This document shows positions 2 through 287 of a stretch of 287 nucleotides of DNA, in pieces (positions within the stretch are counted from its first letter, which is position 1; each line of letters starts with the position of its first letter). The stretch comes from Escherichia coli (GTDB lineage Bacteria > Pseudomonadota > Gammaproteobacteria > Enterobacterales > Enterobacteriaceae). The notes beneath the pieces are model-generated. The model saw only the letters and a list, made by a program, of their open reading frames with translations. It was not told where the DNA came from and searched no databases. Location of the stretch: the NCBI RefSeq assembly GCF_003334305.1, contig NZ_QOWS01000087.1, one strand, 5' to 3'. The position numbers and the translations under genes were made by a program.

Positions 2-77
2 TGGTGGGTGATGACGGGATCGAACCGCCGACCCCCTCCTTGTAAGGGAGGTGCTCTCCCAGCTGAGCTAATCACCC
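2..77 (-). tRNA. valT: tRNA-Val, anticodon UAC, complete 76 nt with genomically encoded CCA
   Basis: Reverse complement of 2-77 reads GGGTGATTAGCTCAGCTGGGAGAGCACCTCCCTTACAAGGAGGGGGTCGGCGGTTCGATCCCGTCATCACCCACCA. It folds as a canonical cloverleaf: acceptor GGGTGAT/ATCACCC, D-stem GCTC/GAGC, anticodon stem CCTCC/GGAGG with loop CTTACAA, T-arm GGCGG-TTCGATC-CCGTC, discriminator A, CCA. The anticodon TAC is at window 42-44 (reverse complement). The sequence matches enterobacterial tRNA-Val(UAC) from memory. The paralog name is tentative because several identical copies exist (valT/U/X/Y/Z); valT is chosen only because the upstream gene is tRNA-Lys with a 135-nt spacer. Confidence 0.95.
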
Positions 78-98
78 AATACTACGCTGGATACTACA

Positions 99-113
99 AC
101 TAACTATGTTAGT
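99..113. other. Perfect inverted repeat giving a 6-bp stem with a 3-nt loop (actaac-tat-gttagt), abutting the orphan tRNA-Lys 3' fragment
   Basis: Positions 99-104 are the exact reverse complement of 108-113, with loop 105-107. Its last base (113) is the terminal A of the CCA copy. On the minus-strand RNA the hairpin begins exactly at the end of the tRNA-Lys 3' fragment. The stem is AT-rich, so stability is modest. Confidence 0.35.
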
Positions 114-130
114 GGTGGGTCGTGCAGGAT
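113..130 (-). repeat. Orphan 18-nt copy of the tRNA-Lys 3' terminus (minus-strand ATCCTGCACGACCCACCA), an exact direct repeat of 213-230
   Basis: Plus-strand 113-130 (tggtgggtcgtgcaggat) is identical to 213-230 over 18 nt. It corresponds to tRNA-Lys positions 59-76: the last two T-loop bases, T-stem 3' strand, acceptor 3' strand, discriminator and CCA. Identity stops sharply at both edges (131 g vs 231 t; 112 g vs 212 t). The upstream flank (131-146) retains only faint similarity to the T-arm (TCGA...ATCC with a 3-nt insertion), so this is a fragment, not a pseudogene. Confidence 0.85.
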
Positions 131-146
131 GACTCGACTTCGTCTC

Positions 147-157
147 GCCCTTCGGGC
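147..157. other. Short GC-rich hairpin, 4-bp stem with 3-nt loop (gccc-ttc-gggc), directly adjacent to the 158-173 hairpin
   Basis: Positions 147-150 (gccc) pair with 154-157 (gggc). The minus-strand RNA reads GCCC-GAA-GGGC. It is contiguous with the 158-173 stem, so the two could stack coaxially. The stem is short and the loop tight, so stability is uncertain. Confidence 0.25.
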
Positions 158-173
158 CGTTGCTGATGCAACG
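158..173. other. Perfect inverted repeat giving a 6-bp stem with a 4-nt loop (cgttgc-tgat-gcaacg)
   Basis: Positions 158-163 are the exact reverse complement of 168-173, with loop 164-167. On the transcribed minus strand the RNA reads CGUUGC-AUCA-GCAACG. No U-tract follows on the minus strand, so it is not an intrinsic terminator for the tRNA transcript. Confidence 0.4.
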
Positions 174-212
174 TTATCCTTCACGTTTTACTACCGCTTC
201 CACCTTAGCGAT

Positions 213-287
213 TGGTGGGTCGTGCAGGATTCGAACCTGCGACCAATTGATTAAAAGTCAACTGCTCTACCAACTGAGCTAACGACC
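213..287 (-). tRNA. lysT: tRNA-Lys, anticodon UUU, 75 of 76 nt in window (5' nucleotide at 288 is outside), with encoded CCA
   Basis: Reverse complement of 213-287 reads GGTCGTTAGCTCAGTTGGTAGAGCAGTTGACTTTTAATCAATTGGTCGCAGGTTCGAATCCTGCACGACCCACCA. This is a canonical cloverleaf lacking only the first G: D-stem GCTC/GAGC, anticodon stem GTTGA/TCAAT with loop CTTTTAA, T-arm GCAGG-TTCGAAT-CCTGC, acceptor 3' strand ACGACCC, discriminator A, CCA. The anticodon TTT is at window 253-255 (reverse complement). The sequence matches enterobacterial tRNA-Lys(UUU) from memory. The paralog name is tentative because there are several identical lys copies. Confidence 0.93.

Follow-up and report, generated by a model that had tools for sequence, protein, structure and literature searches.

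The RtT RNA, or RttR, of the Escherichia coli tyrT-tyrV locus reportedly goes back to Bosl & Kersten in 1991. The tRNA-linked repeats (TLRs) of this bacterium had first been noticed by Egan & Landy in 1978, and the catalogue of Rudd (1999) comprised 22 TLRs at ten K-12 loci, with one to five per locus, both as relayed in PMC8144298 (Front Microbiol 2021). The hallmark of the 22 K-12 TLRs is a stretch of 18-19 bp identical to the 3' terminus of whichever tRNA or rRNA gene precedes the unit (PMC8144298). The 5S-linked members rrA, rrB and rrF, which lie between the dual terminators of rrnA, rrnB and rrnD, bind Hfq and CsrA in vitro, whereas the TLRs of tRNA operons were predicted to be CsrA non-binders (PMC8144298). 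According to the same paper, TLRs "thus far have no known function", an early starvation phenotype of the tyrT RtT repeats having later been retracted; for the 5S-linked TLRs a role as RNase E or 3'-end signal has been proposed (PMC8144298).

With these systems we compared a stretch of 287 nt from E. coli (the window, i.e. the whole stretch of DNA that was analysed). On the tRNA strand it comprises, in this order, a tRNA-Lys(UUU) gene of lysT type (213-288, of which 213..287 in the window, minus strand; ARAGORN, Rfam tRNA 71.1 bits), a 135-nt spacer and a tRNA-Val(UAC) gene of valT type (2-77, minus strand; ARAGORN, Rfam tRNA 65.9 bits). The window is the E. coli lysT-valT spacer together with its flanking tRNAs, the first base of tRNA-Lys falling just outside the window end. 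The genuine 3' end of tRNA-Lys, AUCCUGCACGACCCACCA (213..230, minus strand), consists of the T-loop end, the T-stem 3' strand, the acceptor 3' strand and ACCA. As a whole, the window was 100% identical to many complete E. coli genomes, which in practice excludes that the 18-mer or the core would vanish on re-sequencing. Related sequence was present in 5426 of 5426 complete genomes, with the best place being at least 99% identical in 4379 records, and the exact Lys-Val spacer was found at a coverage of at least 80% in only 3586 of the 5426. The K-12 lysT-valT spacer, also 135 nt long, differs from that of the window at two bases, both of which fall outside stems: relative to K-12, the window carries C for G (tRNA strand) at position 165, in the loop of core hairpin 1, and U for C at position 78, immediately 5' of tRNA-Val. 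Gene order in the operon was Lys-Val-Lys-Val-Lys-Lys-Lys in K-12 and Lys-Val-Lys-Lys-Lys-Val-Lys in strain PS3T; this strain-variable order and the limited presence of the spacer suggest that the repeated units have recombined with one another.

An exact 18-nt direct repeat, TGGTGGGTCGTGCAGGAT, occupies positions 113-130 and 213-230 (100 nt start to start, with 82 nt between). TGGTGGGTCGTGCAGGAT reads on the strand opposite to the tRNA genes; on the tRNA strand the copy (113..130, minus strand; direct-repeat search, shuffles and fold) is AUCCUGCACGACCCACCA, from the T-loop end through CCA, and it lies inside the 135-nt Lys-Val spacer in the same orientation as the tRNA-Lys gene. A pattern search allowing up to 3 mismatches returned just these two sites in the window, and 200 dinucleotide-preserving shuffles gave 0 matches to the 18-mer. 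The repeat boundaries are sharp since the flanking bases differ on both sides (g112 versus t212; g131 versus t231). The first-pass annotation of this DNA, which had described an exact 18-nt duplicate of the tRNA-Lys 3' terminus at a distance of 100 nt, in the same orientation and with sharp identity boundaries, was thereby borne out by the repeat search, the shuffles and the differing edges; so was its remark that no element is inserted at present, only 82 nt lying between the copies. Its description of the copy as an orphan, however, did not hold. The K-12 operon contains ten exact occurrences of the 18-mer, namely the five genuine 3' ends of lysT, lysW, lysY, lysZ and lysQ and five copies, one of which lies 98-156 nt (start to start) downstream of each tRNA-Lys 3' end.

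The copy terminates a complete TLR unit of 100 nt in the short RtT-like form (113..212, minus strand; Rfam RF00391, alignment and fold), which begins one base past the genuine CCA and closes with the copied one. The Rfam RtT model RF00391 scored 60.2 bits (E = 1.3e-11) at 281..113 on the minus strand, above its curated gathering threshold of 45 bits, and the copied CCA forms the very end of the matched interval. The 5' half of the model was aligned onto the tRNA body with a 44-nt insert, so that the truly homologous model positions are only ~60-130. RtT matches over threshold were found in all five K-12 Lys intervals, and the tyrT-tyrV locus gave four matches of 133-138 bits, each ending in the tRNA-Tyr 3' end AAUCCUUCCCCCACCACCA. 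The unit could be aligned to the remaining four Lys units of K-12 as well as to the RtT repeats of tyrT, and this alignment reveals a common Lys/Tyr core, A[A/G]CGUUGC-loop-GCAACG[G/A]CCCGAAGGG[C/U]GA...GA[G/A]U[C/A]AUCCU, beyond which every unit follows its own tRNA. The core is also common to the 5S-linked rrB of rrnB. The likeness to the tRNA-Tyr 3'-end units of tyrT pointed out previously thus extends to a conserved core common to the spacer and the tyrT RtT repeats, and, as judged from the aligned sequences, the relation between the two is one of homology, not analogy.

The lysT-valT unit agrees on every point with the definition of TLRs given in PMC8144298. It lies on the same strand as tRNA-Lys and starts at the base after its CCA (with the operon context taken from K-12), it ends in an exact 18-nt copy (113-130 = 213-230), and it aligns with the tyrT, Arg and rrnB rrB units and contains the signature GCAACGGCCCGAAGGGCGA. 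The outer helix of RtT is represented by CGUGAAGGAU, which pairs with AUCCUGCACG in 9/10 pairs. Like the window unit, the other TLRs of K-12 are located in tRNA operons right after a tRNA gene, have an 18-nt matching end and contain the common core; there are up to five units per locus, and five in the lysT operon. We saw no essential difference between the two, and the unit is a member of this group. That the 18-mer is the terminal segment of a TLR, an RtT-like element, is in our judgement almost certain.

Compared to the RtT (RttR) of tyrT-tyrV, the Lys unit shares the core hairpins, the closing helix in which an upstream strand pairs with the copy, and the CCA terminus, but it is short (~75 nt homologous), lacks the 5'-domain hairpin GAGAAG/CCUUC...GAAGGUUCGA, ends in the Lys and not the Tyr end, and lies between genes, whereas the tyrT units form a tandem array after the last gene. 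The tyrT-form 5' domain (a hairpin with a copy of the T-stem 5' strand and UUCGA) was found in long units but in neither the short Lys nor the Arg(ACG) units; the window unit is therefore a short variant of the RtT family. In rrA, rrB and rrF the homologous core AACGUUGCGAAGCAACGGCCCGGAGGGUG... likewise precedes a segment that duplicates the upstream gene's 3' terminus. These RNAs have an additional hairpin on the 5' side and loops with GGA motifs, in contrast to the Lys unit, whose only GGA (in GAAGGAU) is found in the closing helix and not in a loop as in the CsrA/Hfq subgroup. As to annotation, PGAP applies the label "RtT sRNA" to the unit behind the final tRNA-Lys of another E. coli strain, while in the K-12 RefSeq record none of the five Lys units is annotated.

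The unit was predicted to fold with a minimum free energy of -34.7 kcal/mol (z = -2.77) into a closing helix, three small hairpins inside it and an 8-base tail. In this predicted fold, bases 121-130 of the copy form the 3' strand of the closing helix and bases 113-120 (ACCCACCA) the tail, for which GGUGG at 200-204 is an alternative pairing partner. The 5' partner strand CGUGAAGGAU (176..185, minus strand; MFE fold and pair counts) pairs with the first 10 nt of the copy with one A.G mismatch. Of the three hairpins, all on the minus strand, core hairpin 1, CGUUGC-AUCA-GCAACG (158..173; fold and alignments), is 99% paired and combines a nearly invariant stem with a variable loop, and core hairpin 2, GCCC-GAA-GGGC (147..157), is contained in the ACGGCCCGAAGGGCGA signature of all TLRs. 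Core hairpin 3, GAC-GAA-GUC (136..144; pair counts), covaries, with its middle pair (columns 44-51) occurring in four Watson-Crick forms (GC:10, AU:6, CG:3, UA:1, in addition to UG:1). The three-hairpin core can be written as ACGUUGC...GCAACG, GCCCGAAGGGC and a variable hairpin.

Pairs were counted across 21 aligned short units of the Lys and Arg types. With a structure derived from the same sequences that were used for counting, 95.4% of cells were paired in the 21 units, versus at most 47% with partners slid by 1-3 columns; the covariation score was 0.114, versus 0.03 in the slid control. Two pairs displayed at least three pair types. In the closing helix (helix 1), 90% of cells were paired across the 21 units, and pair 4-65 is U-A in Lys, G-C in Arg and A-U in variant Arg units; in L078 the 5' partner changes from G to A where the tRNA end changes from C to U. 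All host tRNAs have one half of the closing helix (AGGAU/AUCCU) in common, and a cross-type pairing control with G.U allowed gave 8-10/10 pairs with the unit's own type and 7-9 with other types, a modest discrimination. Nearly all of 75 distinct units folded into the same architecture, with the tail predicted to be single-stranded in most of them. The long unit after E. coli lysQ has lost the 5' partner, so the closing helix is not universal. When the precursor of tRNA-Lys plus spacer was folded, the tRNA kept its acceptor stem and its anticodon and T arms, and the TLR formed a separate domain. Pairing of the copy as a decoy with the 5' acceptor strand of the tRNA was also considered and received no support from this thermodynamic fold of the whole precursor.

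An A/U-rich leader of 35 nt (78..112, minus strand; inverted repeat and precursor fold) separates the copied CCA from tRNA-Val. The copied ACCA together with CUAAC can pair with GUUAGUUGU of this leader to form a small hairpin (window 96-116; inverted repeat), which would hide the copied CCA as long as the precursor is unprocessed. No sigma-70-like site was found in the spacer that could serve as an internal promoter, and the single "terminator-like" match was rejected as a spacer terminator, being core hairpin 1 on the non-transcribed strand. Further, the spacer contains Arg-rich short open reading frames of 20-26 codons (window 109-171 and 104-184, both minus strand), one of which reads QQRPEGR in the frame of tpr, the 29-aa "protamine-like protein" of the tyrT RtT repeat (RQRPEGR). 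The starts and lengths of these frames vary, i.e. they are not conserved, and the likeness to tpr is probably due to the core DNA common to both; a small-protein reading of the spacer was discarded on both grounds.

The distribution of the core was assessed with the pattern GCRACGRCCCGWAGGGYGA in one genome per species (at least 120 loci), in combination with ARAGORN. Among the matches listed, the core was located downstream of tRNA-Lys(UUU), Tyr(GUA), Arg(ACG), Pro(UGG) and Pro(CGG), in Escherichia, Citrobacter, Enterobacter, Klebsiella and Pluralibacter as well as in Pantoea, Erwinia, Mixta, Acerihabitans and Gilliamella, i.e. mainly in Enterobacterales. Exact copies of at least 18 nt of the unit's own upstream tRNA were present, among the matches listed, in 33/38 Lys, 23/25 Tyr, 7/7 Arg(ACG) and 3/4 Pro units. 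Citrobacter displayed the order Lys-unit-Val as in the window (L006, L094), and imperfect units followed tRNA-Arg(CCG) in Marinobacterium and Amphritea. In Citrobacter youngae (L098), the acceptor stems of two neighbouring tRNA-Lys genes are not identical (GGGUCGU...ACGACCC versus GGGGCGU...ACGCCCC), and the unit behind each gene copies the end of that gene (GACCC versus GCCCC). Units after variant genes for tRNA-Tyr (L116) and tRNA-Arg (L078) likewise copy their own upstream gene. As far as these sequences tell, the coupling between copy and gene is local. An insertion specific to one lineage was also considered for the window unit; it is refuted by the unit at the same place in Citrobacter (L006, L094) and by related units after tRNA-Lys in many genera.

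Several further arrangements were seen in the course of the comparison. In rrnD-type operons (L111:297-449; also L014 and L092), a short TLR is located between 5S rRNA and tRNA-Thr. The last 22 nt of the L111 unit (AACUGCCAGGCAUCAAAUUUAG) duplicate the 3' end of 5S rRNA together with its trailer, and an upstream GGCAGUU is complementary to AACUGCC; the Rfam RtT search did not detect this 5S-tRNA-Thr unit. In K-12, a 54-nt direct repeat after lysQ (L001:2636-2689 and 2792-2845) comprises the 18-mer and a Rho-independent terminator. As the repeat includes the terminator, the last TLR lies between two identical terminators, like rrB between rrnB T1 and T2. Long TLRs (L113, L120, L019, L003:1067-1244) carry an antisense copy of the host T-arm/acceptor followed by a sense copy, the Lys form being CGUGUAGGAUUUGAACCUGC ... 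GCAGGUUCGA[core]AUCCUGCACG...CCA. Here the ~70-nt core sits in the T-loop of the partial sense copy, between UUCGA and AUCC; the sense and the antisense copy are paired to each other, and both change with the host tRNA (Lys, Tyr, Pro). This layout hints at an origin by inverted duplication or by insertion into a T-loop.

Repeats that carry the TLR core and are free-standing, i.e. not tRNA-linked, were observed in Alcanivorax sp. 24 (L033-L047), Pseudomonas (L029/L079), Pectobacterium (L107/L108), Kluyvera (L121:8892-8985) and Arsukibacterium (L100-L103). Their form is AAAAUUGC-CGGGA-GCAAUUUU, ACGUUGC..GCGACG, CCCGAAGGG and a GGA-loop hairpin, then UCAUAAAAAA. One Alcanivorax genome contained at least 19 such copies, some as 74-nt tandems. 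The free-standing repeats align with rrB of E. coli rrnB and with the window unit, and six representatives (L032, L035, L037, L040, L103, L108) gave no Rfam match at E <= 0.001.

The lysT operon is transcribed as a single ~1100-nt transcript, from which RNase P frees the tRNAs starting from the 3' end and going backwards (PMC4176162; Agrawal, Mohanty and Kushner). The 133-150-nt 3' trailers of the Lys pre-tRNAs, which are the spacers, are cleared by RNase II/PNPase and then RNase T, and probes for the lysT-valT spacer reveal polycistronic operon precursors (PMC4176162). Cleavage of the long spacers by RNase E occurs chiefly in cells whose RNase P is inactive; in wild type, where Northern blots display few intermediates, this enzyme has a minor part (PMC4176162). 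For RrB, the 3' end of the 173-nt form lies 3 nt past the copied 5S end, which led its authors to infer an RNase E recognition element (PMC8144298).

Against this background, the most likely role of the copy is that of a 3'-end-defining processing signal which would give the spacer RNA a defined end; we put this forward tentatively, with somewhat less than even confidence. The reading follows from the way the unit ends, namely in a helix-proximal ACCCACCA, as a tRNA end presents itself to a 3' exonuclease or RNase E. The closing helix and the ACCCACCA tail would re-create the local context of the genuine tRNA 3' end, RNase E would cut just past the copied CCA, and RNase II, PNPase and RNase T would trim back to the helix-proximal CCA. 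The spacer RNA would thereby obtain a defined end and be cleanly parted from the tRNA-Val leader. The first-pass annotation had suggested that a second ACCCACCA end in the precursor could affect 3' processing, and this comes close to the sole functional proposal in print, the RNase E or 3'-end signal put forward for the 5S-linked units (PMC8144298). The minor part of RNase E in wild-type lysT processing weakens the RNase E-signal reading at this locus. Identity between the copy and the real end may be kept either by a processing constraint or by local gene conversion: as tRNA ends are nearly invariant, gene conversion or repeated duplication could keep the copies exact without a role at the RNA level.

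The first-pass annotation took the copy for a scar of duplication or recombination, a reading that the comparison it called for does not sustain. The copy ends a conserved, structured unit and an upstream strand pairs with it; the fragment recurs with its flanks in all other long spacers of the operon and at the same place in other genera, e.g. in the Lys-Val spacers of Citrobacter (L006, L094). It is thus an old operon element and not a recent scar. Stripped of the word recent, the same idea becomes that of a neutral repeat at the DNA level that arises incidentally when tandem tRNA arrays duplicate or recombine unequally, that has no RNA function and whose identity to the tRNA end is kept only by gene conversion or repeated re-duplication. 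Units of tyrT type occur 1-3 in tandem depending on the species, the order of Lys and Val genes differs among E. coli strains, the spacer is found at the above coverage in only 3586/5426 genomes, the lysQ 54-nt block including its terminator looks like a plain tandem duplication, and copies track the variant gene directly upstream, as local conversion predicts; all this fits such a repeat. We nevertheless judge it unlikely, given that the same core follows five tRNA species and 5S rRNA in many genera (among the matches listed), and that random duplications would not time and again link one core to different 3' ends at the same junction, GAGU[C/A]|AUCC. Loops, moreover, drift while stems stay and pairs compensate. 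The 5' partner, being an inverted match to the copy, also tracks it, which conversion between direct repeats does not explain.

An integrase attachment site had been considered as well. The T-loop-to-CCA segment is the usual identity block of integrases, and a direct repeat of this segment, as at the attachment sites in tRNA genes, gives the Lys unit a geometry that is superficially right for the remnant attL/attR core of a phage or island whose tyrosine integrase uses the tRNA-Lys 3' end. Such a remnant is nonetheless extremely unlikely. Integrase or island genes were not found within ±3 kb flanks in two E. coli genomes, the operon being flanked by tolB-pal-cpoB and nadA-pnuC-zitB, and the unit has neither integrase nor cargo. 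The 82 nt between the repeats are a structured, conserved core common to tyrT, Arg, Pro and 5S units; five such units are present in one operon, the same arrangement occurs in Citrobacter, Enterobacter, Pluralibacter and others, and TLR units also follow 5S rRNA. A role in trans of the excised spacer RNA, with its ACCCACCA tail on a helix, appears very improbable to us. The RNA would act either as a mimic or decoy of a tRNA 3' end (towards the RNase P P15 loop, RNase T/PH or the CCA-adding enzyme) or as a regulatory or sponge RNA like RrA/B/F of rRNA operons or 3'ETS-leuZ. Sponge RNAs from tRNA spacers such as 3'ETS-leuZ are also by-products of tRNA-operon processing that could act after excision (PMC8144298); they have no sequence relationship to the Lys unit, which is not known to bind Hfq or to have an sRNA partner, and the parallel would be one of function only. 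The single-stranded tail predicted for most units, the accumulation of tyrT RtT as a discrete RNA annotated as the sRNA RttR, and the in vitro binding of RrB to Hfq and CsrA (PMC8144298) are in line with a trans role. However, 19 TLRs of tRNA operons scored < 0.01 in a predictor of CsrA binders (PMC8144298), the window unit has no GGA in a predicted loop, its tail can pair with the upstream GGUGG or the downstream Val leader, and the scarcity of intermediates in wild-type Northern blots (PMC4176162) also speaks against it.

Together, these data lead to an explanation headed by the 18-mer as the defining terminal segment of a TLR, which as a whole we consider highly probable. The feature is already known, as a short-form TLR/RtT unit, and its unit is an old, structured and conserved operon element of a described family. 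The value of the finding is mainly that of a correct identification, at a place where RefSeq annotation shows only tRNAs, of a member of a family described in 1978 and catalogued in 1999. TLRs are located in some of the most highly expressed enterobacterial operons and are conserved across genera. The copying of the own gene's end even among variant genes in one operon, the pairing of a partner strand with the copy, and the core common to 5S-linked units and free-standing repeats all argue for constraint and not for debris. The remaining interest lies in the putative role of the TLR family. In view of the many-copy free-standing relatives in distant gammaproteobacteria, the TLR core may be a portable structured RNA module that stable-RNA genes acquired at their 3' ends on several occasions. 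The strict agreement of each unit with the gene directly upstream of it, and the compensation in the partner strand, would in that case point to a selected RNA function of all TLRs, the Lys unit included, a scenario to which we assign a distinctly low probability. If it were true, a mimic of the tRNA 3' end would control or time 3' maturation, or titrate an enzyme that binds 3' ends.
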